Shown: piece after piece, positions 363 to 32,729 of the stretch
How positions within the stretch are numbered: the first letter of the stretch is position 1
Layout of the letters: each line of letters starts with the position of its first letter
From: Atractiella rhizophila
Lineage: Eukaryota
Direction: 5' to 3'
Length of the DNA: 64,000 bases
NCBI GenBank assembly: GCA_021432655.1
Contig: MU271188.1
Location: 53,683-117,682, forward strand
Notes under the pieces: model-generated
The model's database searches: none
What the model saw: the letters and a program-made list of their open reading frames with translations, nothing else
Told to the model about the DNA's origin: nothing
Made by a program: the position numbers and the translations under genes

Positions 363-1615
363 CTAGTTCTGCACGAACGCGAATGTCTGGAGAGCTTCAT
401 CAGCTACAGAGGTGATGCGGGGGAGAAGAAAAGACGTACGAGGACATCATCGCTCACCGATTGCTGGTAATGCTCTTCCGTCTGACCGATGTCCCCGGAG
501 ACGAAAACATGGTCTTGGAGGAGGAAGAATTGAAGTTTGGCTGTGCCACACGGAGTGAGACGACTAGGGGGAGGGGGGAAGGAAGACATACAAGATCCCC
601 ATGATCCCGTCAAAGCACCGTTTGACGCTTTGAGCGTCCACTACATATGGCTTGTTAATATTGCGCTTTCGAGGCAATGCTGAAGAAAAAACGTACACAA
701 GACGATGTGCTCTCAGTATCTTTCTTCGTAGCCAAGTTACCCACGGCCGCAGGGGAGTCGGCTATTCATGGTCGATCAGTAAAATAGGGAATACGAAGGA
801 AAGAAAATTTAGAGAGGAGACAGACACTTCTTCGTAAAAGTGAGCGCTCCAATCTGAGCGGATCCCTTTCCGATATTATCCGACACTGTCTCGTCTCCTA
901 CACTGGCGATGCCAAGCACAGGATAATTGGCAGCCTGGGCAGAATTCTGCGTACCCACGCAAATCAATGAGTCTCCATCTGAGCGCAGTGATGCAATGCA
1001 AGGGTGCAAGAAAGGGGATGGGAGAGGAGGAGGACCGCACCCAGATTCTCAGTTCATTATTCTCCGCAACATATCGCACCGTCAAAGCGCTTGCTGCCTT
1101 TGTAGTGAGGGAAACGACACCGCTCCCTGTAGTAAAAGAGTTGGCGAGGTAGCCGACTGAATCTCCATCTGCACCGATTAAGTATTCAGTCGGGGAGGAC
1201 GAGGTATCAACTGATGGGAGCCGGGACATACTCTGGAAAACTTGAATCTTCCCTACGACGTCGTCTGGTGTTGCTCCATCCGTCGTAGAGTTCGATGACG
1301 ATCCTGACAATAGATCTACACCATCATCGACACATTAGCAGGTTAATCTAGGGAGGGAGATCGATTCCGGCGATCCTCTCGTCATTGGAGGTTGCAGAAC
1401 ATTGGCGCATTTTGAAGCAGGGTGGAGAAGGCAAACGTACCATCTACCAGTCCCTTCTTCACCACTTGCAACCTTGCAGCGCGTGCTTTATGCGAGCTCT
1501 GGACGAATCTCCTCTCAACCAGGCTGGTAAGGGAGCCTGAGTTGGGACGTGCGACGGCCGAGGTGACCGAGGAGAGGATGAGGGGGAGGGACAGAAGCGC
1601 GGTGAAGAACTTCAT
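363..1615 (-). CDS. Multi-exon secreted protein of unknown function
   Basis: ATG at 1615 gives MKFFTALLSLPLILSSVTSAVARP (signal peptide) followed by LVERR (Kex2-like site). Spliced exons continue through ORF 876..1310, and the last exon ends ...QTFAFVQN-TAG at 363. Confidence 0.7.
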
Positions 1616-3044
1616 CGTTGTCTGGAATGATACAGTAAAAGAGTGAAGCTGAAGCCGAAGGGCGTAGAAGTTGGGTATCTGTGAGATATAAACTTGCGTC
1701 TGAATTCCTTCGTCGTCCTGAGGTAGCCGCACCGCGGGAATGCGGATCTCGTGATTTTTTTCACCTTATTTTCGAAAACGAGCTCTCTGGTGTGTCATAT
1801 ACATAATGTGCATAATACGTGATGCGATGCCAAGTTTTGCACGCTAAGTGGATGTCATCAATATTGCGAGATAATGGCATTCTTCACGGGCTACCGAATT
1901 TACATGGGTGACAAAGAACAGTGAAGACATACAAGCCGTCTATCTCGAATCACTTTCCCTGCTGCCTCTTCCGAGTATCACATCTTGGAGCGGAACTCAT
2001 CCTTGATATCGTATGTCTCAGTCTTCTCGCACAAGCTGAACAAATCTCGCCCACGTTTGAGAGACCGAGCACTTGTTCTTTCCCCTGATGATCCATTGTC
2101 ACCTGTCAAATTTAGCTTTATTGTAGACCAGAGAGAATCACTTACAAAACACACTGAAATATTCACGTAAATGGTTGGTGCACTTATTGGAAACCGCACC
2201 GATTTCTGATTTTGTTGGGGTATATGCATATACCTCGATGGCACCAGAAAGTGCACGAGACCAGGAGAATTCGTATGCAGTCTGCCTCAGTATTGTAATA
2301 CCTTCCATATTGAAGTACCTTCGTTGTGACCCTCGGTTAAAGATACGGCATCAATGACGCAAAAATGAGCATAAACGCTTCATGAGTGGTTGCATAGCAA
2401 TTCATAATTTCTTTCTGATATCCCATCCCTACCAACAGAAAATGCCAACAGACGAAAAAATAGGTAATAAATATAACCCCGCAAGTAGTACCTTCAGACC
2501 ACAACCTGATCTTCAAGTGTGGAAGGGGGTCCCTTCATCTCAAGATTGATCTCCCAAAAGCGCGTTAAGCAGAACCTCTACATTAGATGCCATAATGATA
2601 CATGTGTTGAACATGAATCGGCGGAGGACTCCTAGGCGTAGGCTTTTGGGATAAACTGAATGTATAATAAATTTTCAAGCAGCCTTCGCATCCATTCCCA
2701 TCGTATGCTGTGAAAGGAAACGAGCTCGCTCACGGAGACAACACGAAGTAATCCGTTTGAAAGAAGCCCCCATAGTGTTTGTCAAAATAGAGCTACATTG
2801 ATAAAGTCGAGCCTAGTATCAGCACTGTTGTATTGGGAAGGAGCTCCTTCCTCCAACTTCCTATTTACTCGTCGCAAAAATTTTCGTGTCGATGCTTTTA
2901 TAAGGGGTACTGCCGCTGTACGCCTTGTCCTTCCGCATTCCACGGAACATGCCGCTTTGACATCAGCCGCCGATATTTCTTCAGCAATCCTATATTTCAT
3001 AGTTTCATAGGTCCAGTGTTTACGTTGCAGCACAACCACGCGAC

Positions 3045-4682
3045 ATGCCGGCCTCAAAATACTACTCCCGCGCACCAGACGTACTACCGCCAAGTCCAAG
3101 CCCAACGCTAAACGCGTTCTATCAGACGAAGAGTCGTCACACTCTGAGGGCGATCATTCCGAGTTCTCTGCCCATTCCGATGAAGAAGAAGATAAAGAGA
3201 GCGTGGCAAGTGAAGACATAGACGCGAGCTCGGATGGAGGAAAAGGAAAGAATAAGAAGCGAAAGAGAGCTACGGCAAGGGATGACGGGAGTGCGAAGAA
3301 GAAGCTAAAGGGCAACGGAAACGGGAGGTCTACTCCTACAGGGAAGGGGACGAAAGTCATTAAGGAGGTGAAACAGGTTGAAGCTCCTCGAAAGCAAGGT
3401 GTGTAATGCCTTTCTTAATAAGGACATTTGGGAATGCTGTGTCTTGTGTCTTCAGCACCACCTGGACAAATTGCCCGAACCACGATGGACTTTCTCTCAG
3501 CGCTCTGCGACCCTTCAAAGAATGACCGCGAATGGTTTGCGATTCACGAACCCTTGTACAAGCACGCGCTCGCAAACTGGCATGCGTTTGTCGATGCTCT
3601 TCAGCCTCTGTTGGTCGAGGCCGACCCAACAATCCCGATCCTTCCGAGCAAGGATTTGGTGCATAGGATTTATAGAGATGTTAGGTTCTCCAATGACAAA
3701 ACACCGTATAAGAAGAATATGTCAGCTGCGTTCTCGAGGGCGGGAAGAAAAGGAGCATTCGCATCGTAAGCTTCTCTGCTTTTCGTTTGTTTCAGAAGGT
3801 GCTATTGGCAATATCACGCCAAGTATCTAAGTCGCGTACACAGCGATGCCATTCGGTATATTGTTAGGGCTTGTTAGCTAGTCTATAGGTTTCATCATAG
3901 CTTGCATATTGTGTTCAACCAAACAGAATACTAATCCTCTTTCCTGTCATAGATATTACCTGCACATCCGTATGCGTTCCTTTTCTGCCATCACCGACTT
4001 CTAATTTTGCTTCCCAACCCAACAGAACCTGGCGACGGCTCTCTCCTTGCGTGTGGTCGATGGTCCCCACCCTCTTCTGAGCTTGTCACGCTACGTCACT
4101 CCTTCCTCGACCCCGTTAAGAACAAGAAGTTCCGTCGAATAATCAATGAAGAAAAATTTGTCAAGTTCTTCGGGCCGGCGAAAGCAGGACGGAAGGGGAA
4201 AGGGAAGAGATGCAATGTTTTTGGGCACGAGGATTATTTGAAGAAGGCACCTAAAATGCAGGGAGTCACGAAGGATCATAAGGATATTGATTTGTTGAGA
4301 TTGAAGACGGTGGGAGTGAGCATGACGTGCGTTCCATCCTTTCATGCCCGCTATGTGCCGTCCCATCAATGAGCAATGGATTCATGTCTGAGTGTAGGTT
4401 CAAAGATGAAGAAGTCTTGTCACCGGAGTTTAAGTACATTCTTTTCGAGGTATTCAAGGCACGTTCCCTCTTTAGCCATTGGTTGAAATTTTGTACCTTG
4501 AACTGAAGGAAGAGCAGGTCATGTCCCCCTTTGTCCGCTACCTTAACGTGCTCCTCCGTCCGCGTTCGAGGGATTCCTCTGATGATGACGAGGATGATGA
4601 CGACGAGGACGAGGAAGCTAACGATGAACAACCACAACAGGAGGAGGAGGAGGAAGCCGAGGAGGATGACAACGTAGTGTGA
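3045..4682 (+). CDS. DUF2461 (TIGR02453-like) family protein; start uncertain
   Basis: Motifs NDREWF, HRIYRDVRFSNDKTPYK, YYLHI, LKKAPK and HKDIDLLRLK. Basic/acidic low-complexity N-terminus and an acidic tail ending at TGA 4682. Confidence 0.8.
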
Positions 4683-9753: not shown

Positions 9754-11551
9754 ATCGTTCCTTCTGTTAGCTCGGATGCACTTCAAGCTAGAATGTCACT
9801 TCTTCGAGGGATGAGAGGGAGGATGAGTTGGACACTCCATCAAGGCTTTTATACGTCTTCCTGCCAATCTCTCGTATCTCGTCCATAATCGAGAGCAAGC
9901 GCAACTGAATAACAGCTCAGGCACGTTGCTGGAGGCATTGAAATTTCTGTATTGGGATACGACCTTGGTTTTCTCTTGGCCGTCTGTATGCCTCAGAAGT
10001 ATGAGGAGGAGAACCGGGAGAACTACCGGAACTTTGAGGTGGAGTTGGATGGGTCGCATCCCACAGACGGTTAGAGGCGGCTCACTTGCTTGGCTGCTTG
10101 CTTTTCGCAGCTTGCGAGACAAAGAAGCCTCGGTGTGAGTGTTAACAGCACGTTCGAGAGAGAGAAATTCGGTTATTATGGAGAGACATGGAACAAGCAA
10201 ACCCATGATACGAAGGGATCAAATCTAACGGAGTTGAACCCACAGAACAGGGTATTTCTCGTGTGCCAGTTCGAACGAATGTCAAAAGTGCAAAAGCCTG
10301 TCTGACTCTAGAGTCGTACGCATGCTCGGACACCAGCATGAGCTGTGGACGAAATACAGGTTGGATCTCATGATCAAAGCGCACGAAAGCGACGAAGGAG
10401 GCTGAAATTCGCTGAATTCACTCACCACGTTCAGGCCAACTGAGGGAGCGTCATGTCTTCATATTGCCTCTATATCCATGCTTGCCACCTTCACAGCAGT
10501 CCAACTGTTGTGCACCCTTTATGCTTCCTGTTGAAACTCAGTTGGCCCAGTCAGAGCAACCTGAGGCAGAAAATTGAAACTTAAAGTGTCAAGTCGTACG
10601 GCTTCATTCCAAAGCAGTTTCGAAGGCAATGAATACACGCATGAAGTTCGTGAAATGGACAAATCGAGGGTCTTGCTACTATCACGTGATAAATGTTGTG
10701 GACAAAGAAGGCCCGATCTGGTGGCAATTTTCTCTGTATCAGTTTGCTTCAAGCGCATATAGAGCTACTGCAGCTGCATGGGTAGGATCAAGTAGGATTT
10801 GTGAAGCAGGAGTCGAAATATGAAACAGAAGAGCGGAATGAACCAAAATGGAAGTAAGAAGAGTGGGAGTGGGTTGGTGAGAGGGAAAGGGAAAAAGAAA
10901 GCTGTTGAATTGGCGGAGAATAAAAGATTCAAAGTGAGTGCTTTCCTGAGGAGGGTTTCAGGGTTTCAGATGGACCATCACTGAATTTTCTATTTTACCA
11001 CTGTTAGTATGACTTCTTGCAAGAAATTTGGTGAAGTGACCCTGGTTGCTGTCTAGTAACATTGGATAGTTGCTATTCTGTGAGCTTGTCTCTTGGGATC
11101 AAACGAGTATCCAGAAAATCGTACAATCTTCTGCCATACTAGTTCTCCTAGTAGTATTCTGATGGATTGTTTCCTTGGCCCGAACTTGCTCTGTATCCTT
11201 AGGTTAACTCTGAGGTCTGGTTGTTGAATATTTTCGTTGAATATCCTGTTCATGGATTTAGCTATTGTGCGCGTACAAGTACCGCCATGCATAACGCCTT
11301 GCAACCAGCAGAAAAGGTATCGCAGTTCTCTCACATTCTGGCGATTTGTTGCCAGTCGGGTTTCGCACGATATGATTGCGAGAAACAGAGATCAAGTACC
11401 GTCGCCAAGTTGGAGTAGAACGCACAGTTATGTATTCTAACATCCATTTCAAATTTAACCCTTTCCCGTCCTCTATGAGATTCTGTGGTTACGAAGTGTA
11501 CTAATTCAGTCCCAGTATGCCTCCAACTCCTCACAACTTGCAAATCTTCCG

Positions 11552-14500
11552 ATGCCGACGTCTTCATTTGCTCCTTCGACATCTACCTCATACATCACGA
11601 GCGACTCCGAAACAAATCCGCTTTTGGGTGCACTCAACCACCTGGTGTTGGAAGATTTAACCACTCCGTTCCTCCATCTCTCTCGCGCACTGCGACCGTG
11701 CGTGGTGACGTGGGAAATGAGCGTATGGAAGAAAGATGAAATATTTACACTTCTCACTGCTGCCATCAAACGGAACACGGGACATTCATTAGATTTGCTT
11801 GAGGCGGCCATGAAGATGTTTACACCGGATGAGGTGGAGCTCGAGGGGATCCTTGAGATTACCAAAAGCATCATAATTTTGGCGGTGGAGCCGAAGACTG
11901 CATTTGACACAGTCGAAAGATGCGCCGCTATTTTAAGTCTCCTTTTTGGGAGCTGGGGAGGGAAGTGGTTCTTGAGAGAGGAGGAGGAAGAAGAAAAAGA
12001 AAAGATGGAGGTTGAAGAACAGAGACGATCGGAGAAATTGAAGAACGTTTGGACCGTTGTAAGAGGAGCGTTGGGGTACAAAGAGACGACAGTGAAGGAT
12101 CTGGATGGCGATGTGGACATGACGAGTGGTAAGGAGCAGGAGGAGGAAGAGGAACAGATACAAGATCCAGAGGATGAAGATTCTTCTACGCTTGTCGAGA
12201 GCCAAGAGGATGACGGGGCAGAGGCTGACGACAAAAGGCAAGACGGAGGTGAGGAAGGAGACGAAGAAGAGGTGGAGGATGCGGATGCGGTGGATGCAGA
12301 GTCATTACCATTACCAGTTCTGCAGTCGTCGGTTTCGCCCAAATTGTTCAGGTTGCCCGTCACCCATGTCCACTCCAGCGTACTCCGTCTCATCGCCTCT
12401 TCTTTCTCTCACATCTTCCGGCGCGCCCGTGCCTCTAAAGGTGAAATACGCCGGGTACTGGACTTGATGCTTTGTGACCTTTGCCAGGAAGCTCCTGAAT
12501 TGGACTCCGATGTAGAGGTTCAATCGAAGAAAGGGAAGGCGAGGGGAAAGCAGGGCGGAGAAACCATTGGATTTCGGGACGCTATTGCTCTCGTGCTATC
12601 GGAGGCTTGCAAATCCATACCACCCAGTTTGCATGCACATACAAAAGACATCATGCACTCTCTCTTGGATACTATCCTCTCACCGTCATCTTCTACCAGG
12701 CTTGTTCAACGCACTGGAGAAGTTTTCAAGTCCATCCTCACGGCCCTCGTTCATTTCACGGCACCTGCGGACGGGGAGGATGAGTTTGGAGGTTTTGAAA
12801 TGAATGTAGGCGAGACGATTGTGAGTGCCGTGGAGAAGGCATGGGAGGATCAAGCTAGTAGTATCGAGGCGAACGAACAGCTTTTAGAAGTGATGATCAC
12901 CATAGTGGGCGGGAGGAAAGGGAAAAAGATTTCTGGTGGGTTCGACTGCTTGAGAAGCATATTTGACTTACTAATTGACATTTAGGCCCACAAAAGATGC
13001 GGATATCAAAGCTTTTGTCGAGAATGCGAAAACCTTTCATTTCGAACGACAAGACCAGAGCCAAGTTCATCGAATTATCCCTTTCTTCCCTCCTATCTTG
13101 CGCATCCAGCGTCGATGAAGGGTTTGTTACAACTCTCCTGGGCATCGGGAAGGAAGCGGATGCAGAATATATCACTGTTATCCTTGTCTCTCTCGTCCGC
13201 TCAGATTGGCTCCGTTGGTCAACTTTGGGTTCCGGTCTAAGTCAACAGTGGATGCTGATCTCGCGAGATTCTACTTCAAGGCAACACCAGCTACGGCTAC
13301 TCGCCGAACTAGCAAGGGCATCCAAACTGGTCGCTTTCCTGAACCAATATCCAATCATCTTGAATTCAATAATCAAACCTTTCACGGGAGACATCGACTC
13401 AGCTCGCTGGAGCAGCCTCAATATGGCAGATCTAGCCGACGAAGTTGCGATTCTCAAGGCTATTTTGCAGAGTGATCGTTGCACTGCAGCTGAACGGATG
13501 AGCTGGAAGGAACAGTTGCTGGGTGTTCTGCAGACTTTAGTTGGAAGGGTAAAAGGGTCGGAGGCTGCGAAGGAGGAGTTTGCGAGCTCGGCAGAGAATG
13601 AGACCCTCCGTATGGCGTGGATACTCGAATGCTGGGTCAAATTGCAGCCAACACTCAGCGAAGAAATGTTTACACAAGTGCTGGAGCGATGGCATTGGAG
13701 TAAATTAGTTCTAACAAGTTTGGTTGTTGTGTGCGTTGTTTGCTCAGCATCGCGGTGCCGAAGAATTGATTCAGGCTGTAGGTCGGAGACAGCACCTCAA
13801 ATTTCGCAAGCCCAACTCAAGCTGTTACTTCCCAATGTTATCTCAGAAGATCGTGCATTACGATCCACCACTTTGAGGTTGTTACGGGCTTCTTTCCCGA
13901 CGATGCTGGACGATGCTATTGTGTCGAAATGTATTGACATCGACCACATACCACTTCTTCCTACTTCTACAAGAGAGTTTTCGGTCGCCATCCGAAAGTT
14001 GGTTGATGTGGCAACGAGGACATTTGGAGACGAGGATGGCCAACATGAGACGACCAAAACGGTTGTTGTCTCATATCTTTTGTGTATGTTTCTCACATTG
14101 TTATTGCACTCGCTCTCATGGAGCAAATAGCTTTATTGAAGGCAAACTTCCAACCGGTGTGGTCAGATGCAATTTCGGGCCTCGCCACATTAGCCAAGGT
14201 CTTGCCCACAGTTATTTCGACGCTTGGCATCAATGAATTAGAGCTTGCTGCCCATTCAGACATCAAACTTCGAGTGGTGAAATCTCCCCCGTGGCAGCCA
14301 AAAGAAGAAGCGACTACCACAAGAGAAAATGCTGTTTATGACTTTCGCGATGTCAACATCGCGTCAGTTCACCGTCAGGTAATTGAAGTTACCCGATTTT
14401 TGTGCGATCGGAAGCTCAATCCAACTCTCATAGACGACATCGAGGTACAAGGTTGTCTTCTGCATGATTTAATGATCTAATCAAATATTTCAGCGTCAAC

Positions 14501-17500
14501 TGCCAGAGTCCAGCTTCGACATCTTCAGTTACGAGACCCAGCTGCTCAAACTGATTGAGGCGATACACGACGTAGCACAGCGATCCAATCGTCGCATCGT
14601 AGAGATATACTTTTCGTACGTCGATCACCCCACAGACGACAGTGAACTAGACGATGACACTGCGATGGGCTCATTGTCTGCCAAAGCAAGAAGAACTCGA
14701 ACCGTCAGCTGGCTACGAATGTTCAGCAAGTTTTCGAACCTCAAAGCTGCTTTCAGGAGCCCTGAATTGCGCGTTTCCTTTTTTTCTTATCTGGCAAATG
14801 GGAACGTGCCGATTCAACAAGCTGCACTGGAGTGTTGTCTGGCTTGGAGTAACCCCACTGTTGAGCGACAGACAGAATTTCTTCGTCTTCTGCTCGATGA
14901 CAAATGTTTTCGTGACCAACTTTTACGATTGTCTTCGTCCGAAGAAGTCCAAGGCTTCACTGCAGAAGAGAGGGAACAACTAGTCGAATACACGACACCA
15001 ATCCTCTACGGTCTCGCTACATCTCGCAGTGGGAAGTTCACACAAGCTGGTCGTGGCCAAGTACTGAGGAGGAATGCTATTCTCTCAAGCTTGCGAGCCG
15101 GCCCAAGTTTAGAGGTGTCGACTTTTGTGGAGTGCATGTTGAAGCCTTTTCGTGACCTCATTGGTGAGGAGGACCAATCAAACTTCACGCTATCAGATGA
15201 GACTCCAAAATCATCTTTTAAGCAGCAAATTGGATTTCTCAATTTTCTAAACCAAGTGATCAAGCAAGTGTGGAACCGAGTCGAGGAGGGACGCAAACTC
15301 CATTTCGTCGGGATCGTCGTAAAAATTTTGCACTTCGCTCATTCTCAGTTGACTGTCCTCGAGTCGCAACCTTATCAAGTCTCCTCCATTTACCTTGAAA
15401 GAATCCGGACGACTCGACGGCTTGGATTGCGCTGTTTTGTGGACTTGATTCGAAATTGCTCGGGACTCACTCTGGACCAATATCTTCGACCTGCCTTTTC
15501 GTCGTTCATCTCTCCTCGACTGGCAACATTTCCGTCGGACACTGCACAAGCTCCGTCTCCACTGTTAGACCTCGCGATCTTTTGGTCACAAACCGTCGCT
15601 GGATCAAAGCTGTTAGTCCAGTACGACCTAAACTTCCTCTCTGCGATCTACAGTTGTCTAGGAGTACGAAACGCGAAGCCGGCCGTCGTGTTGAAGGTTT
15701 TCGATGTCATTCAGAACCAATTGACACTGGAATCAGAACTTTCAGACAACGTGATCATCCCGTTCCTTCCAGTTTTTCTGAAACAACTCGAAGGATTATT
15801 CTCCTCCCGAGCGTTGAACCTATCTGGGAAGGATCCCGTTTCGAGGCGATTATTCGTCGTCCTCACTCAAGCCGTTCCACTGATCCGATCTAATCACGAT
15901 GCTGCTGGTTTTATTCCTCTGCTCCTTCAGCTGCTGCGACGCCCCAATGGCGCGGTTTCCGAAAAACTCAAATGCGACGCGCTTGAGATCCTAACCACCC
16001 TCCTTGAATCGTTGACCAATTTAAACGACTCCACTCTCGATCAAGTCTACAACGCAATCTCCAGCTTTTTCTGCACATTGCGTTGGCGCGCCGCACGCCC
16101 TCGGCTCAGCCGCGCTTTTAGCGCATTAGCAAATGCGCGTCCTTCGCTCCAGAACGTCTCCCGGCTCCTTCAGGACCTCAACGCTTTCTCCCAACGTCGA
16201 GTGGAAGAACCTGACTATGAGTTGAGATTGACAGCATTCCAGCAGATAAAACAGCAAAAGACTTCCTTTTCTGTGATCGAATGGCAGCCATTGCTCAACA
16301 ACGGATTGGCTTTGTTGCAAGATAACGAAGAATTGTCGATGAGAACAAATGCGTCTGATCTTCTCCAAAACTTTACCTCGCTAGCTTTTTCAACAGCGCC
16401 GTCATTCGTGGGTTTAGTTCAGGATACTCTCTTGCCATCTCTTCGAAAGATGCTCCGTTCCTTGGAAGAGAATGTTCGAAGTGAAGCTTTGGCGGTATAT
16501 GGTTACGTTGTTCAGGAAGGGAAGAATACGCTTCCTGAGCTGCAGGAACTAGCCAAACTATTGGTAGAAGGCGACAAGGAGGCTAATGTGTTCCACAATC
16601 TCTACCACATTCAGATTCATCGACGCACAAGAGCTTGGAGAAGGATTGCCGATGTAGCCGAAAGTGGTTTGATTTCAAGCAGATCTGTTGACACTTTGTT
16701 CTTCCCTCTTTTGGACAACTATCTCCTAACTGACCAGCTGAAAACTTCGACGGATTTCCAGAATGAAATGGTCCTCATCCTGTCTAGATTCGCGTCTATT
16801 TTAGACTGGGGACCCTATCGCCGTCGGTTGCAGAAGTATCAGGCGGCACTGAAGAACACGAAAACTTCGACGCGTCTTACGGTACGTAGCGTGGTTGCGC
16901 TCCTCCGAGGATATCACTTCCCGATCAATGATCGCACCGATCAACGGATCTTTCCTTTCGTTGTTTCAAAGCTCTTACCCGATCTACTCAAGTTTTTAGA
17001 CCAGAGAGACGGGGTTGAAGAGGCGTTGCGAATTCCCATGGGGGAGGGTATAGCTCAGATTATCAAACATCTACCCGACGAAGAGAGAGATGCTTCTACC
17101 TACCACCTCCTCGCCTCATTGAGTCAAATTCTTAAGAGCACGTCACAAGATACGAGAGAATTGACCAGAGCTAGCTTGGGGAATGTTGTTGCTTTGCTTG
17201 GCTCTGAAGCCCTCCGGATTGCCGCAAAGGAACTTACTGGGGCTCTGAGACGCGGCCCTCAATTACACATCCTCGCGTATACCATTCATCATATTTTAGT
17301 CAAAATATCCAAGGTGGAAGGATTTGGAATTGACCCGGCGCTGGAAGAAGTGCTTCCCATCCTTGAGAATGACATGTTTGGTCACCCAGCGAAAGATCGA
17401 CAGAACAACGAGTTCCGCGCAAGGACCAAATTCAGAGAGGTGCGGTCGTCGAAATCAGCAGATTCGTTCCAATTACTTGCCCAAGCCGTCTCACCTTCGA

Positions 17501-19982
17501 AACTCAGTACCCTACTCCTTCCTATGCGCTCCATTCTGCAACGAATCAACTCTTCCACTGCCCTTCGCGATGCAGAAGAAATCTTTCGTCGTATATCCAG
17601 CGGCTTAGTGGACAACCCCAGGCTCGGAGCCAACGATATTCTCAGACTCTGTGCTGGCCTGATCTCACAGGACAACGAGTTTTTCCGTCTGAGGTCAGGA
17701 GAAGAGACAGACACGAAAGTGCTCTCCCGCTATCGCGTGCAGACCACTCGGAAAAGTACTGAAATCTCAAACGCTTTCAAACAAAACCGCATGCTCTTCA
17801 CCTCATTTGGCCTGGAACTCTTTTCCTCTGCGTACAAGAAGAATAAATTTGACCTTTATGATCCGTCAACGCTCTCTCAGCTCGATGACTACATGCAAGC
17901 CGTAGGGAATTGTCTCTACTCAGAGGATGTCACCATCCTCGGCAAAGCTCTGAAGGTTGCTAGCTCCCTCGTGCAATGCCCTCTTCCGTCAACGAACAAC
18001 ACTGCACCGGTTCTTATCAGGCAAATTCTTGTGGTCCTTAGACAAGCCGGGGGGACGTCTTCAGAACTGGCTCAGTCTTGCCTCCGGACCCTTGCGCTAA
18101 CCATTCGAGATTGTAAATCGGCGACGCTTTCTGTCTCACAGCTCAACGAGCTCATGAAGATTATCTCTCCTGATTTGGAAGAAGTTGACCGTCAAGCCGC
18201 CCTGTTCGCCCTCCTCCGAGCCATCATATCGAGAAAGTTCGTATCACCGGATGTTTACGATTTGATGGACAAAGTGGCAGAGATCCTTGTTACCAACCAG
18301 GCGAAGAATGTGCGAGAGGTCTGCCGCGCCATCTACCTTCAGTTCCTGTTGGATTACCCGCAGAGCCGCTCTAGACTAAAGGCGTCTCTAAATTTCCTCG
18401 CGAAGAATTTAGCTTACGAACATGAAAGCGGGCGACTTTCTGTTCTGGAATTAATTAGCGCGATCCTGAACAAGTTCAATTCAGCCCTACTCCACGACCA
18501 TATTTCTCTATTCTTTGTTGCCCTTACAATGATGATAGCAAACGATGCCTCCTCCAAATGCAGAGAGGTGGCTTCAGAGCTTCTCAAGATTCTTTTAGCC
18601 AAGGCTAGTGCGCAAAGCAAAAGAGAACTGGCAGAGATGCTCTTTGCTTGGGTCGAGCAACGGGCTCAGTTGGTTCTAGTTCATGCCGCACTCCAAGTGC
18701 TCAGTGTTATGATTGAAGTTGCGCCGCTGGAAGAAAGTGACGGTCTTTTTTCGAAATCTTGGGACCTAGTGCGTGCGAATCTTGCGGCAAGCGGTCAAGG
18801 AGTCGAGGGAGCTGAGGAAGAAGTGGAAGATGAATCCAACCCTCTGGATTTCGACTGGAAGATCCCATATTACACTCTCCAGGCCATGAACAAACTCCTC
18901 TCTAAATCGCCTCAGCGCTTTACAACGCCATCCCACGAGATGTTTACATTCTGGAACTCTGTGCGGCAACACCTTCTGTTTCCTCATGCGTGGGTTCGCT
19001 CCGTTGCTTCTCGATCCTTTGGTCAACTTTTCGCTGCTGTTGCGACGCAAACGCTGGCCGCTGTTGAGCTGTCGCAAGACCATCCCTTATCCATATTTAA
19101 TTTGGTCGAGACGGCACGCAAAATGTCTCTTCAACTTCGGAGTGAGCATCTGGACGAGGCATTGGCACTACAGGTCGTCAAGAACCTTGTTTTCATCCTC
19201 AAAACCTTTGAAGCCCGCAAGACAGCGAATATTACCCCGAGCGAGGAAGATGTAGATGAGTCTGCTGGCGAGGAAGAAGGGAAGCACGTTCCCCCAAACC
19301 CCTCACGCTGGCTGTGTGGTCGAATGTCTAGACAGCTACGGGCGTGCCATGATTCACGGCCCAGTATTTACGAGAATTTGAAGGTGTTACGGCAATGTCT
19401 GTCCGTCTATCTCGCTGACAATTGCTCCTAGAAACCGTGGACAACGCAACCTTCCGCAATATTGAAGTGGTTTGCAGCACTAATTGAAGTCCTACCCGCT
19501 GCAACCCTAGATACATTGCTGCTCCAGCTAATGACACCATTGTACCGAATAATCAATCAGGAAGCTCGAGTAGAGGACGAACAGTCAGGTGCGTCTGGCA
19601 CCCATAGATATTTGTCGCGTTGAAATCTCCGTGCAGTCAAACTTCAGAGTCTCGCATTAGAAGTTCAAGACCTCCTGCAGTCTAAAATATCTGTTGAATC
19701 GTTCACGCGTACGCTTACAGAAATTCAAAAGCGATCGACTCAGAAAAAGTTCGATCGCAAAGCAGCACAAGCACTTTTAGTTTGTCTTCTCTTTTCCTCT
19801 CCTTAGAGAAGTTATAACAAAGCCTACAGCGCTTCTCTGAACCAGAGTTGCATGACAAGAGAAGGATCGCAAAAAATGCTGCAAGGGCCAACAGCCGGAA
19901 AAGGAAAAATGCGAACTTTGAGCAAGGAAGGTATGCATTGCACAATGGAGGAGGCAAGATCAAAAAACGGAGAACGGAATGA
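11552..19982 (+). CDS. UTP20: U3 snoRNP/SSU processome HEAT-repeat protein Utp20 (DRIM); the true start probably lies slightly upstream, with an acceptor near 11509
   Basis: Very large HEAT-like protein with a 1588-aa exon containing HIQIHRRTRAWRR, LRRGPQLHILAYTIH, KFREVRSSKSADSF, QFLLDYPQ, NLAYEHESGR and LLFPHAWVR. Basic C-terminus KRRTE-TGA. Confidence 0.93.
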
Positions 19983-20190: not shown

Positions 20191-23100
20191 TCAACTCTCC
20201 CGAAAACCGGCCGCTTGGAGTTCATAAAGATGGTGATATTTCCCTTTGAGCTCCATAAGCTCTGAATGCGTCCCTTGCTCTATCAACTGTCCCCGTTCCA
20301 TAACAAGAATCCTATCCGCTTTGGCAGTGAGGGAAAATCGATGTGTCGCAAAAATGATGGTACACGTTCCTCGCATCTCGTAGATTTGTTTGAAGAAGCG
20401 ATCCTCTGCTTGAGGGTCAAGATTACCTGCAGGCTCGTCAAAAACTCGCAAGTCTGCATCAGCTCGCATGAATGCTTGAGACAGTGCGATTCGTTGTTGC
20501 TACATGCTCGGGAGACTACGTTAAATGGGGGAGCAGAAAATGAGGTCAGAAACACTCACTTGGCCACCAGAGAGAGTAACATTGCCCAATTCCTTCCAGG
20601 CTTCTTGGAGATCAGCCTCTTTTCCCATTTCCTTTTTCTTCTCGTCCTCCTTCTTTTCCTCTGCTCTCTCGGTGTTTTCTTCCTTCCTTGTATCAGTTTC
20701 CCTCTCCGCCACCTTCCTCCGCTCTTTACCGGTCTCCTCCTTCCTTACCCCGTCCATCTTCGCAACGGCGTCCTTTCGCTCGTCATCTTTCTCTTTCTCC
20801 TCCGTCACCATCGCTAACTTTGGCGCCTCTCTCCTCTGACTCCCTGAGCCAATCATGACAGCTCCAGGTAGTCCCTCTTCCTCAACAACCTCCTCAACCT
20901 CGCCCATTCCCATCGTCCGACTCATTAAGGAATCAAAACCATACGGCAACCGCTCTATAATTTCCAAAGCATCGCTCTTCCGCGCTGCCTCCCTAATCTT
21001 CTCCATGTCATGAACATCTTCGACGCTCCCGACGCCAATATATTCCTTTGCGGTAAGTGGGAGGGGTGTGGTGGTTTGGAATAGAATGGACATGCGTTTT
21101 TGCAGTGCAGGAGTTGAGTATGAACCAATAGGACTACCGTTAATTAGGATCGTGCCGGAGGTCACATCGTACAATCTCGAAATCACATTTACTAAACTGC
21201 TTTTGCCTGAGCCATTGAAGCCTGCATTCTATGGTTCGACACGGTATAGATAAATTCGGTGATGGAGACGGACCGACTAAGGCAACCAATTCCCCCGGAA
21301 GGATAGTGAAGCTGATATTCCTGAGGACCTTGGGCATCTGGTATGTCACTCGTCCCTGTTGGATCGCTTTCTTCACGGCAGGTGAAGGGTATTCGAACGA
21401 CACGTCCCTGTCCGCGAAAGACGTCAGTCTCTGATATACTCTAGTTCTAAGGGGAAATATAATATAAGGGAGAAAGAAACCGTACCGGAACTCGATCCCC
21501 ATCCCTCTCGCCTCCTTGCCTCCTTCCATCTTTCTCGTCTGTCTCCCATATTCCTGCGGATGTTCAGGCTCTGGTATATCTCTCTCGATTTCTGTTCACG
21601 GTCACGGAACCACATCAGCAGCAGCACGTGTGACGGCGAATAATCTACTACACAGATTGACATTTAGAAGAGGAGACGAAGCTTACCCAAAGAGCGATAC
21701 AACGCCTCCACGTCTGCCATCATCCTATCCATCCTCCAAAAATGGTTTGGCAGTCGAAATAATGTGCTGACTATGATCGCTACAGATTGTTGGATGAACA
21801 ACAGCTCTCCCATTGAGAGAGCCTCCCTAGATGAGCCTGTGGCCATGCGGGAGGCGATAATGGTCCATATTGCCTATGTATCCATCATTGAGACTCAGCA
21901 TCGTGAGGTAAGAGGACGCAATGCTTACATATGTTACCGTCTGACTTAATTTGGGGTATAACGACACCATCCAACTCATATTCCTCGCATACGGTGAATC
22001 AATCGAAACATCACCCAGCTCTGCCGCCTCTCTTTCAAACTCATCGTGTAAATAGTCTCCTAGTCCCAGAGCGATGATGGAGCGCGAGTAAGAGTCCGAG
22101 GTCGCAATGTTCTTCATGAGGTTCATGCGGAGATAGTGAGGGTCGTTTATCGTGTATGTTTCGTTGGCCCATCCTGCTCACCGAGTAAGTAAAAGAAATA
22201 TCACGACTCAGGCACGAGGGGAAGGGAAAGGAGTAAGAAGACCTACGTCCCCAAATGCTCCGCCAAACTTGGTACACCGTCCCGCCCAAACTGGCCAAAA
22301 CCAATGGCCAACTCTTCTCGCTGACCATCTTCCTTACTATCGCCAGCTGCGCTCCGAAGGACACCAAATCCTGCCATAGGTCCATGACGATACCCGGACC
22401 AGACCTATATACATCTGCGCTGAGCCTCGCGGACGAATGAAGGATCTGTCGAGTGGCTGAAGAGGAAAGAGATGTGAGGTCCAACCGAGAGCGAGAGGCG
22501 ATCAAACGAGATTGGATAAAGGTGTTGAGTTTGTGTTTTACAATCCCATTGTTTTCGAACCTTCAAATAATCTCGCTTGCTGAGAACGCAAATGCAAAGA
22601 AAAGGGAGAAGACAAACGTGAGGGCGAGAATTTGGAGGGAAGATAACTCGCAGAGGAGCTTAAGGAACAAGGTTTTGAGGAGTCGGAAGTAGGACAAAGG
22701 CTGATGCCCATCAACCACTCCTTTAGCCTATCCAGTGCAGAAATCATTAGACCTTTCAACTCGGACACGAGATGGGAATAGTCAAGAGCGTAGAGTAAGA
22801 ATATGCTCACAATTTCAATCATCTCCCTACTGTAGTATAAGCTCGCAGCAGGAAGCATACTTTGCACGCTCCTGCTGGCGAACAGTAGGAGTATCCTCCA
22901 GCCTCCAATGCGGACCAGGTCCCTTGCGAACTTGCCCAAAAGCGGCAGTTGAGACTCCCACTTATACTTCCAATCCCAATCAGTTGCCACCAATATTTTC
23001 CTGATTATATATCTCCAGAACCATCCTCCCTCTTCTGAGAGCACATCCTTCAGCGCTGCCGACGACGAGTTGTTGGCTAGATGACGGCGGGAACCTCGAC

Positions 23101-30840: not shown

Positions 30841-32729
30841 ATGTCAACGCCAGAAGGCCACGCCCTTTCCTCCCAAAGCGGCATTATTTCCCGTCTGACC
30901 TTCCATCCTCAGGATCCCGACCTCCTCCTCTCTGCTTCGTGGGACAACACTCTGTGTCTGCATTCCCTCTCACAGGATGTACCTATCCTCAGAACCAAGA
31001 TCAGTATCGGGTGTCCGGCGCTGGACTGCTGTTGGGGACGCGTGGAGGGGGATGGGGAGAGGATGGCTTTTGTGGCGGGAACGAGAGGGGTGGTACATGA
31101 GTGAGTCTCTATCTCTCGTATTGGAAGAGTGAGAGTAGAATGAACGTGTCGATGGTCGCATTGCTGAACTTCCTGCTGTGCCCTAACTGCACTCATGGTT
31201 GATTTCTCGCTTACGTCCTTATCGACGTATATTCCCCAGCTTGGGTCCCTTTTGATGAATGATGAATATATATGGTAGCGGATCCAAACCAGTCTTCTGC
31301 TCCCATGGTTACTTTGAGGAGCGATGAGAAGACAGTGACTGCAATTCTCTAATCCTTTTTTCTTGTCGGGACTGGGAAATCGACCAGTGCAGGGGCAACT
31401 GTGTTAGGCTTACCTTCGTAATACTTTGTAGGAAGAGATTTTGTACTTAATTATTCGGATATCTGGTCATGCTGTGCTCATGAAACTTTTATTTGGCTCT
31501 CACCTCTTATTGTTTGCTTGCACAGATTGCAACCCGTTACCAGTGGCGAAGGACGATTGCTATTCCTATCACCTTTGAGCGGAAATAGCGATGGCTTTCA
31601 TTATTTTTCTTTAATTTGTTCTCTCTGCCAAACCACCTTTCCTTCGTAAACTATGATGCGACATGCTGATCTTGGTGTCTCCCTGCAGGATTGATCTCGA
31701 GACTCAATCTCAACGCGTCTTAGCAAAACATGAAGCGCCTGTCAAATGTCTAGCATGGGACGATGCATTGAGTGGGTCTAATTCTTTCGTATCTGCGTTA
31801 AAACAACCTGAGCTGATGGACACAATGTAGACGGCGTCGTCTCCGCCTCCTGGGATTCCACCATGGCCCTCCACGACCCTCGCTCTCCCACTCCCACCGC
31901 CTTCTCCATAGCCCTTCCCGCCAAAGCGTACTCGCTTGACGTCGTCCGGGACAAGGTGTTGGTAGCGATGGCAGAGCGTAAGATATGGGTATGGGACGTC
32001 CGTCAGCTCGGTTCACACTGGCGGGGAGGTCCTTCCGATGGGCAGGACGGGGTTTGGCAAAAGAGGGAGAGTAGTCTGAAGTTCCAGACGAGGTGTGTGA
32101 AAGGCATGCCGAGTGGTGAAGGTGAGTCTTCCCTCTTCCCCATCCCTCCTTTATGCCTCGTCAAGAACAACACCTGGTTGATCAAGGATGTATGTACGGT
32201 ATAGGTTTTGCGACCTCTTCGACTGAAGGAAGAGTGGCGGTCGACTTTTTTGACCCGACGAAGGAGTCGGCTAAGTATGCATTCAAGTGTCATCGAAAGG
32301 TGATCAATGGAGTCGACACCATTTATCCCGTCAACGCCCTCGCTTTCCATCCCATGTAAGCTTGCCGTCGCCCGTTCACGGTGTTGATCCCCCTCATGAC
32401 CATTTTCGTTTTAGACACGGTACATTCGCCACTGGCGGATCGGACTCAATGGTCTCCGTTTGGGATGCTGCCGCGAAGAAGCGTTTACGACAGTTTCCTC
32501 AGTATTCTGGCCTCGAAATTACCTCGTTAGCATTCAACGTCGATGGCACACGACTGGCCATCGGGACGGGAACGATGTTTGATGAACAAGGAAGGATCGG
32601 TTTGAAAACTGACGGAGAGGGCGGGAAGATTTGGGTGAGAGATGTGGGCATGGATTGCAATGTGAGCCCCTTCTTTACTCTGTTGGTCGAACAGTTAGCT
32701 AATGTGTCCTTGGATAGCCTAAAAAGTAG
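30841..32729 (+). CDS. BUB3: Mitotic checkpoint WD40 protein Bub3
   Basis: [44 protein letters not shown] and [26 protein letters not shown]. Last micro-exon PKK-TAG. Confidence 0.93.
31170..31666 (+). ncRNA. Candidate large structured RNA (H/ACA-like 3' end) in BUB3 intron 1
   Basis: 588-nt intron (31101..31688) with at least six complementary segment pairs and a terminal hairpin followed by ACA (31661-31663) next to the branch point. Confidence 0.45.

Follow-up and report, generated by a model that had tools for sequence, protein, structure and literature searches.

The window analysed here, a 64,000-nt stretch of the Atractiella rhizophila genome (contig MU271188.1 of assembly GCA_021432655.1, positions 53,683 to 117,682 of the forward strand), contains a BUB3-like gene whose first intron, at 31101-31688, is predicted to fold into a large multi-helix RNA ending in a hairpin that resembles an H/ACA pseudouridylation guide. 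Judged from its sequence, the host gene is a WD40 gene of BUB3-like type: a search of the PDB with exon 4 returned yeast BUB3 first (E 1.2e-7) and Rae1 second (2.3e-6), and exons 1 and 5 gave generic WD40 matches only. Removal of the intron is seen in transcript contigs of three runs (X1, X7 and X8), which are apparently mRNA-type data, the library type not being on record. The joint 31100->31689, which skips 588 nt with GT..AG borders, is carried by one contig each in X8 and X1, and six X7 contigs continue from 31100 directly into the downstream exon. The first-pass annotation of this DNA had considered that the region might be split by extra exons; no joint points to an internal exon within 31101-31688. 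The other three introns of the gene measure 59, 83 and 59 nt, of which the 59-nt intron at 31772-31830 is also supported by a contig joint and the remaining two have been read from the sequence and its open reading frames (ORFs), which makes the first intron, at 588 nt, roughly tenfold the length that is usual in this gene. In X7 the depth is 4-13 over the intron and 400-3700 over the exons; contig depth is uninformative on the RNA level and weighs neither way.

The intron was folded as a minimum free energy (MFE) structure and as an ensemble of pair probabilities (P), and its topology can be read as domain I, a hinge, a 3′ hairpin and a tail, with the coordinates collected in Table 1. The helices that close domain I (31125-31167 / 31467-31508) comprise 30 bp in 6 segments, and inward of them an 8-bp helix (31169-76 / 31428-35) is followed by a 22-bp long-range stem and three to four inner hairpins, with pair probabilities that are mostly 0.79-1.00. 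The long-range stem had already been noticed on first reading; the ensemble places it at 31179-31206 / 31376-31397, in three blocks (5+7+10) with mean pair probabilities of 0.90-1.00. On the plus strand domain I reaches -124.0 kcal/mol (z = -4.08, 0/100 shuffles as stable), compared with -94.3 kcal/mol and z = -1.64 on the minus strand. As the borders of domain I were taken from its own fold, the same rule (the largest closed domain per 588-nt segment) was applied to 13 further segments of the window, and among the resulting 14 the intron domain was the most extreme, with z -4.27 in the control run against +0.52 to -3.78 for the controls. In the proposed check of the MFE against the shuffled range, the intron as a whole stands out marginally (z = -1.93, 3/100 shuffles equally stable), its structure being gathered in domain I and the 3′ hairpin. 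The segments 31101-31180 and 31396-31527, folded alone, have no unusual stability. Taken together, these calculations support a strongly structured, sense-strand-specific multi-helix RNA in the BUB3-like intron. One of the control domains, a closed domain of 478 nt at 22578-23055, is almost as extreme (z -3.78) as that of the intron.

Table 1. Coordinates of the predicted features of the intron (positions in the window; P, pair probability)
Feature	Position	Strand	Description	Basis
BUB3-like gene intron 1	31101..31688	+	588 nt, GTGAGT...CAG, GT..AG	sequence and contig joints
Domain I, candidate oversized 5′ hairpin	31125..31508	+	384 nt, rod-like, branched	MFE and pair probabilities
Hairpin UUGGGUCC/GGAUCCAA	31241..31287	+	stem 31241-48 / 31280-87, P 0.96; loop with UGAUGA twice (31253, 31260)	
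Hairpin GUCUUCU-GCUCC / GGAGC-GAUG-AGAAGAC	31292..31333	+	possible; competes with alternative pairings	
Hinge AUUGUUUGCUUGCACAGAU	31509..31527	+	H-box-like ACAGAU 31522-27; last position U, not A	
3′ hairpin	31528..31660	+	core 31545-31648, z = -3.06, 1/200 shuffles	fold
Possible lower stem	31528-31 / 31657-60, or 31535-37 / 31658-60	+		
5′ pocket strand ACCCGUUACCAGUGG	31532..31546	+	15 nt	
Upper stem CGAAGGA/UCCUUCG	31547-53 / 31640-46	+	7-8 bp, P ~0.87	
Distal stem	31556-64 / 31584-92	+		
Second m1-like CUAUUCCUA (31560-68) and m2-like AAACCAC (31630-36)	31560..31636	+	distal part of 3′ hairpin	
One-sided bulge, 3′ side	31593-31639	+	47 nt	
3′ pocket strand UAAACUAUGA	31647..31656	+	10 nt	
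Candidate ACA box	31661..31663	+	directly after hairpin	
Branch-point-like CUGAU	31666..31670	+	19 nt upstream of 3′ splice site; putative role	

Two inner hairpins of domain I had been drawn in the first-pass annotation. The UUGGGUCC/GGAUCCAA stem is present as drawn, and its hairpin is flanked by the motifs AUAUUCC (31229-35) and AAACCA (31286-91), which resemble the m1 and m2 elements of snR30 discussed below. The GUCUUCU-GCUCC hairpin can form as drawn, but the ensemble favours the helices CCAGUCUU/GGGACUGG and GAUGAGAAGA/UUUUCUUGUC in its place; the segment 31290-31335 has z = -3.04, with 0/200 shuffles as stable. A box C/D snoRNA, for which RUGAUGA near the 5′ end and CUGA near the 3′ end should be joined by a terminal stem, was rejected: UGAUGA stands twice in the loop of the first hairpin, but CUGA occurs only at 31164 and 31666, neither of them a D-box position.

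For the 5′ part of the intron (31113-31252) a second copy was found in X7, approximately 87-89% identical with 15 substitutions and 6 gap positions. The only two changes that fall in the 22-bp stem, C31183U and C31190U, both still pair as G-U, and the small hairpin at 31212-29 is lost through deletions, the AUAUUCC at 31229-35 being kept. This comparison is too little to weigh. The second copy has the 5′ splice site GTAAGT in place of GTGAGT, and X7 also holds exon contigs at 90-95% identity, which suggests a diverged allele or a paralogue in the same material.

Rod-like as it is, domain I might also be an inserted foldback element of MITE-like type, or else a long hairpin from which small RNAs are made, and in either case would have no snoRNA function. 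By our own reading of the helices the rod is two-armed and about 60 bp long, with 53 Watson-Crick pairs, and CTGTG flanks 31181-31398 on both sides in the manner of a target-site duplication; the inverted repeats, however, start elsewhere than these proposed ends. A DNA-level inverted repeat would be expected to fold about equally well from either strand, yet the plus strand is better by 30 kcal/mol, an asymmetry that argues for selection at the RNA level. Moreover, no second copy of the element was found in the 64-kb window, and the second copy in X7 has the same element in the same place. We regard an insertion or a small-RNA precursor of this kind as improbable.

Downstream of domain I, the intron can be read as a hinge followed by a hairpin and an ACA. 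In canonical H/ACA RNAs the hinge contains an H box ANANNA, and ACA stands 3 nt before the mature 3′ end. Here the 5′ "hairpin" would be the branched domain of 384 nt, and the hinge, which is paired in the MFE structure, holds the imperfect H box ACAGAU, as had been reported on first reading. The sequence ANANNA does occur in the intron at five positions (31132, 31286, 31327, 31630 and 31648), all outside the hinge. Within the 3′ hairpin, both the CGAAGGA/UCCUUCG stem and the stem AUUGCUAUU/AAUAGCGAU (P 0.85) were recovered in the ensemble, and the guide-like arrangement described earlier, in which the 3′ pocket strand starts 14 nt before the ACA, was confirmed. The distance from the upper stem to the ACA is exactly 14 nt (31647-31660), and since in H/ACA RNAs the target uridine lies 14-16 nt upstream of the box (PMC2780460, PMC2664660), the spacing is that of the H/ACA rule. 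The intron also contains a 13-nt direct repeat, 12/13 identical, formed by CUUACCUUCGUAA at 31409-31421 and CUUUCCUUCGUAA at 31637-31649. Its second copy coincides with the 3′ strand of the upper stem and the start of the guide strand, and 15 nt after its first copy stands AGAGAU, which shares the A-N-A-G-A-U pattern of the hinge box. The repeat could have been left behind by a duplicated hairpin or could be a chance match (about 0.1 expected by our own estimate).

The target of the pocket was sought on stand-in rRNA. No rRNA was found in the 64-kb window with Rfam at the gathering score, and a scan with the NS1 primer brought up at least 53 prokaryote assemblies (L081-L133) with contaminant eukaryotic 18S pieces, which are plant-, fungus- and protist-like and not the host's own. 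Every U of four stand-in rRNA sequences was scored against both pocket strands. The best target was U121 of L102, in UUAUAGUUUA[UU]UGAUGGUACC, with a score of 22.0 and a runner-up of at most 17, and the equivalent site ranks first also in L115 and L110. In agreement with the complementarity proposed in the first-pass annotation, the 3′ pocket strand pairs over 10/10 nt (9 Watson-Crick, 1 G-U) with 18S UUAUAGUUUA, immediately 5′ of the target U; on the other side, positions 31538-45 of the 5′ pocket strand pair with 18S UGAUGGUA at 7/8 positions including 2 G-U, the match there being as imperfect as had been noted. The bipartite pairing of 9-13 bp flanking a U that characterizes H/ACA guides is thus found on the stand-in 18S of all three loci. 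From primer positions and yeast numbering, we take U121 of L102 to correspond to U120 of yeast and 119 of human, and both 18S Psi120 in yeast (guide snR49) and Psi119 in human (guide SNORA66) are documented sites of pseudouridine (Psi).

How readily such a match arises by chance was estimated in two ways. Composition-matched shuffled pockets scored 22 or more anywhere in 10.8 kb of rRNA in 8/400 trials, and a crude scan of the whole window gave 216 H/ACA-shaped candidates, 7 of which reach the same score, so that the score alone is a 2-3% event. With about 3% of rRNA uridines being pseudouridines, a chance coincidence of score and site would be of the order of one in a thousand. At the target, the guide matches AUAG/GAUGG (22.0) but not AUCG/GAUAG (14.5). 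L102 and L125 contain the former as an exact 20-mer, 18 plant-like loci contain it with one G-U change, and six ascomycete-like loci have the latter. Basidiomycetes, so far as is known, carry the AUAG/GAUGG form, which the host's own 18S would presumably share, and the fit agrees with a basidiomycete host. A further complementarity of 9 nt, between ACCCGUUACC at 31532-31541 and the conserved 18S sequence GGUAACGGG near 358 of L102, has no second arm and is probably due to chance.

The geometry of the 3′ hairpin and its rRNA complementarity, taken together, support the reading of this hairpin as an H/ACA pseudouridylation guide. We consider it most likely, though at no better than about even odds, that the intron encodes a new guide of H/ACA type, possibly with an oversized 5′ domain, which would act at the Psi120-equivalent position of 18S. 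Besides the stand-in nature of the 18S and the mapping of its target by yeast numbering, a number of observations weigh against it. The hinge 31509-27 lacks ANANNA, ACAGAU being the only box-like sequence there. The lower stem UGCA/UGCG that had been proposed to close the pocket can be drawn, but its probability in the full-intron ensemble is 0.0, and CGU/GCG (0.4) is favoured over it. In the MFE structure the hinge segment 31520-31 pairs with 31664-78 over 12 bp (P 0.67-0.75), leaving the ACA in an internal loop. The 3′ hairpin also contains the 47-nt one-sided bulge, of a size that is, to our knowledge, unusual in guide hairpins. The 5′ pocket strand pairs only if it is shifted by 1 nt and if one mismatch and two G-U pairs are allowed. 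Once the structural rules are relaxed, complementarities that score as high become numerous in the intron by chance, so that what supports the guide is the combination of constraints and not the pairing by itself. In domain I, where three pockets that close at the 5′ splice site, as well as a middle one, were tried, no convincing pocket or target was found, the best scores being 16-18 and no best target falling at a known modified site. Rfam at the gathering score gave 0 matches in the whole window, and at E<=10 (31000-31800 and 31390-31675) it returned only chance-level matches to snoMe28S-U3344 (17.7 bits), IsrR, MESTIT1_1 and BsrC; the models of snR30/U17, snR49, RNase MRP/P and telomerase, against which the first-pass annotation had suggested comparison, stayed unmatched, as did SNORA66. 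Of the suggestion of an oversized H/ACA-class RNA, the guide geometry of the 3′ hairpin and its target have thus held, but a consensus H box, an Rfam match and a 5′ pocket are wanting. As a separate observation, the hinge part GCACAGAUUGCA is complementary to the stretch after the ACA that contains CUGAU, and the helix between the hinge and 31664-78 may hide the branch point or form in competition with the H/ACA fold.

The same observations can be read in the light of splicing. The main rival to the guide proposal, to which we give a distinctly smaller though still considerable share of belief, is a long structured intron that yields no stable RNA product, its H/ACA-like features and 18S match having arisen by chance. 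In such an intron the helices would fold away about 510 of the 588 nt, so that the 5′ splice site nears the branch point and the effective length becomes about 59-83 nt, and once domain I and the 3′ domain close, about 80 nt are indeed left single-stranded. Sense specificity is what one would expect of a structure that aids splicing; the lack of a consensus H box and of an Rfam match is as this explanation would have it, as is the fact that 2% of the shuffled pockets and 7/216 window candidates reach the same complementarity score; and with 15 substitutions and 6 gap positions per 140 nt against the second copy, the 5′ part of the intron has been conserved no better than neutral sequence. However, the branch-point-like CUGAU is itself paired in the MFE structure, which is no help to splicing, and it would be left unexplained why the single best target of a pocket placed 14 nt from an ACA is, on our mapping, a documented and conserved pseudouridine.

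If the intron does encode a guide, its maturation may be pictured as follows. Cbf5, Nop10 and Nhp2, and later Gar1, would assemble on the nascent intron, and after splicing and debranching, exonucleases would trim the lariat to the RNA protected by these proteins. The mature 3′ end would lie about 3 nt past the ACA at 31661-63. Domain I would serve as the oversized 5′ hairpin, connected by the hinge and its degenerate H box ACAGAU, and is possibly part of the guide RNA; the mature RNA that accumulates may in that case measure about 540 nt, filling nearly all of the intron. The pocket would pair with pre-18S 5′-UUAUAGUUUA-[UU]-UGAUGGUA-3′, leaving at the pocket top, 14 nt from the ACA, a first unpaired U that Cbf5 would convert to pseudouridine.

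A relationship to snR30/U17 was suggested by the motifs in the first-pass annotation, and in this reading the intron RNA would be an orthologue or relative of snR30/U17, whose UAUUCC and AAACCA dock on rm1 and rm2 of the expansion segment ES6 during 18S processing. The pairs UAUUCC...AAACCA do occur twice in the intron (31230/31286 and 31561/31630), as had been stated, and in the whole window, with both strands counted, only 3 such pairs lie 20-150 nt apart, 2 of them in this intron; the clustering of two of three pairs in one intron is unaccounted for by any of the readings discussed here. Each of the hexamers has a complement, GGAAUA or UGGUUU, within ES6 of L096 and L133, two of the ascomycete-like 18S loci. 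Measured against the snR30 consensus of m1 AUAUUCCUA and m2 AAACCAU (PMC7601244, Table 1), the second pair matches at 8/9 positions for m1 (CUAUUCCUA) and 6/7 for m2 (AAACCAC), and the first pair at 7/9 and 6/7. The size of the candidate is also within the range of yeast snR30, which measures 576-606 nt (PMC7601244). The position of the motifs is a different matter. In snR30/U17, m1 and m2 should stand on opposite strands, within the proximal portion of the 3′ hairpin's internal loop, and the m1/m2 element lies invariantly 7 nt upstream of the ACA (PMC2664660). In the intron, 24 nt separate the second m2-like motif, which lies in a distal loop, from the ACA (31636 to 31661); no ACA stands at a suitable distance from the first pair, AAACCA-N8-ACA being absent from the intron. 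The second m1-like motif (31560-68) is paired, with an unpaired probability of 0.00-0.02 at 7/9 nt, and its m2-like partner is single-stranded; the last nucleotide of m2, an invariant U in the 14/14 species listed (PMC7601244), is here C or G; and no Rfam match to snR30 or SNORA73 was obtained at E<=10. AAACCA also happens to satisfy ANANNA. With the defining geometry absent, the intron RNA is therefore not assigned to snR30; this part of the first-pass annotation was not borne out, and we consider the relationship very improbable indeed.

The two motif pairs could further be combined with the guide hairpin in one composite H/ACA-class RNA of about 540 nt, which would both guide the Psi120-equivalent modification and dock on ES6 through its two UAUUCC/AAACCA pairs. 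Were this so, it would be a basidiomycete merger of an snR49-like guide with an snR30-like processing function, and its geometry, with motifs 24 nt from the ACA and a degenerate H box, would be unlike any described snR30/U17. We attach little probability to such a composite, slightly less than to a foldback insertion.

The host and its relatives provide the comparative frame for these readings. Over 501 aa, the product of the UTP20 gene next to it matches an NCBI protein of Atractiella rhizophila at 100% identity, with the next relatives at about 40%, and the host is a deep-branching basidiomycete (Pucciniomycotina) with no close relatives in the collections searched. Three adjoining long ORFs of 508, 383 and 1651 aa at 11459-19431 appear to belong to a single UTP20 gene in which introns are sparse, unlike the BUB3-like gene, which is rich in them; a protein search with the ORF 11459-12982 gave no matches, presumably since this ORF covers just a part of the long UTP20 gene. 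Protein-atlas entries pointed to fungal families of F-box and UTP20 proteins, with no phylum indicated. A search of metagenome contigs with BUB3 exon 5 returned 80 loci, the best of which is 57% identical, and there are therefore no close relatives among them. In 381 kb of these metagenome BUB3 loci the guide-like pattern TAAAC[TG]A[TC]...ACA was found twice, in neither case in a hairpin context, and no copy of the gene was found in four prokaryote assemblies with contaminant 18S.

Among known systems, the guide proposed here comes closest in function to snR49 and SNORA66. It shares with them the predicted target uridine, as we map it, and a bipartite pocket, which in the candidate stands 14 nt from the box, and like SNORA66, which is hosted in RPL5, it lies in an intron, in this case of a BUB3-like gene. 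However, no similarity of sequence or structure to either was detected (Rfam, E<=10); the candidate would reach about 540 nt if domain I is included, and its hinge box is ACAGAU and not ANANNA. Of the further snR49 targets (18S 211 and 302, and 25S 990), the two in 18S are absent among the 25 top-scoring bipartite matches listed for the first 575 nt of 18S. A survey of fungi follows snR49 back no further than the root of Ascomycota (PMC5824354). Likeness to snR30/U17 (SNORA73) consists in the H/ACA-like layout, the large size and hexamers that coincide with the m1 and m2 cores; the candidate differs in the position of the motifs and the 7-nt spacing from the ACA, in the pairing of its m1-like motif and in an m2-like motif without the final U. 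A guide hairpin accompanied by a very large extra domain is also known from the oversized H/ACA snoRNAs of budding yeast such as snR30 (576-606 nt). Further members of this group are snR37 and snR86, and such RNAs are, so far as is known, independently transcribed. The candidate, in contrast, fills an intron of a basidiomycete protein-coding gene.

Searches of the literature on Atractiella snoRNAs and on fungal BUB3-hosted snoRNAs gave no description of this RNA, although the supplements of the fungal survey may list snoRNAs of an Atractiellales genome (PMC5824354). According to that survey, several Pucciniomycotina are seemingly without up to 86% of the H/ACA snoRNAs in a homology-based search (PMC5824354), and the candidate would be a further H/ACA-type RNA from a lineage in which homology searches miss most H/ACA snoRNAs. 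Should the intron prove to encode no such RNA, it would stand as a warning of the extent to which chance can produce the geometry of an H/ACA RNA, and complementarity to rRNA, in a structured intron. If it does encode one, it would suggest that H/ACA guides have not been lost from these fungi but are too divergent for the family models, being oversized, intronic and equipped with a degenerate H box, and it would give a concrete and testable locus for that claim.

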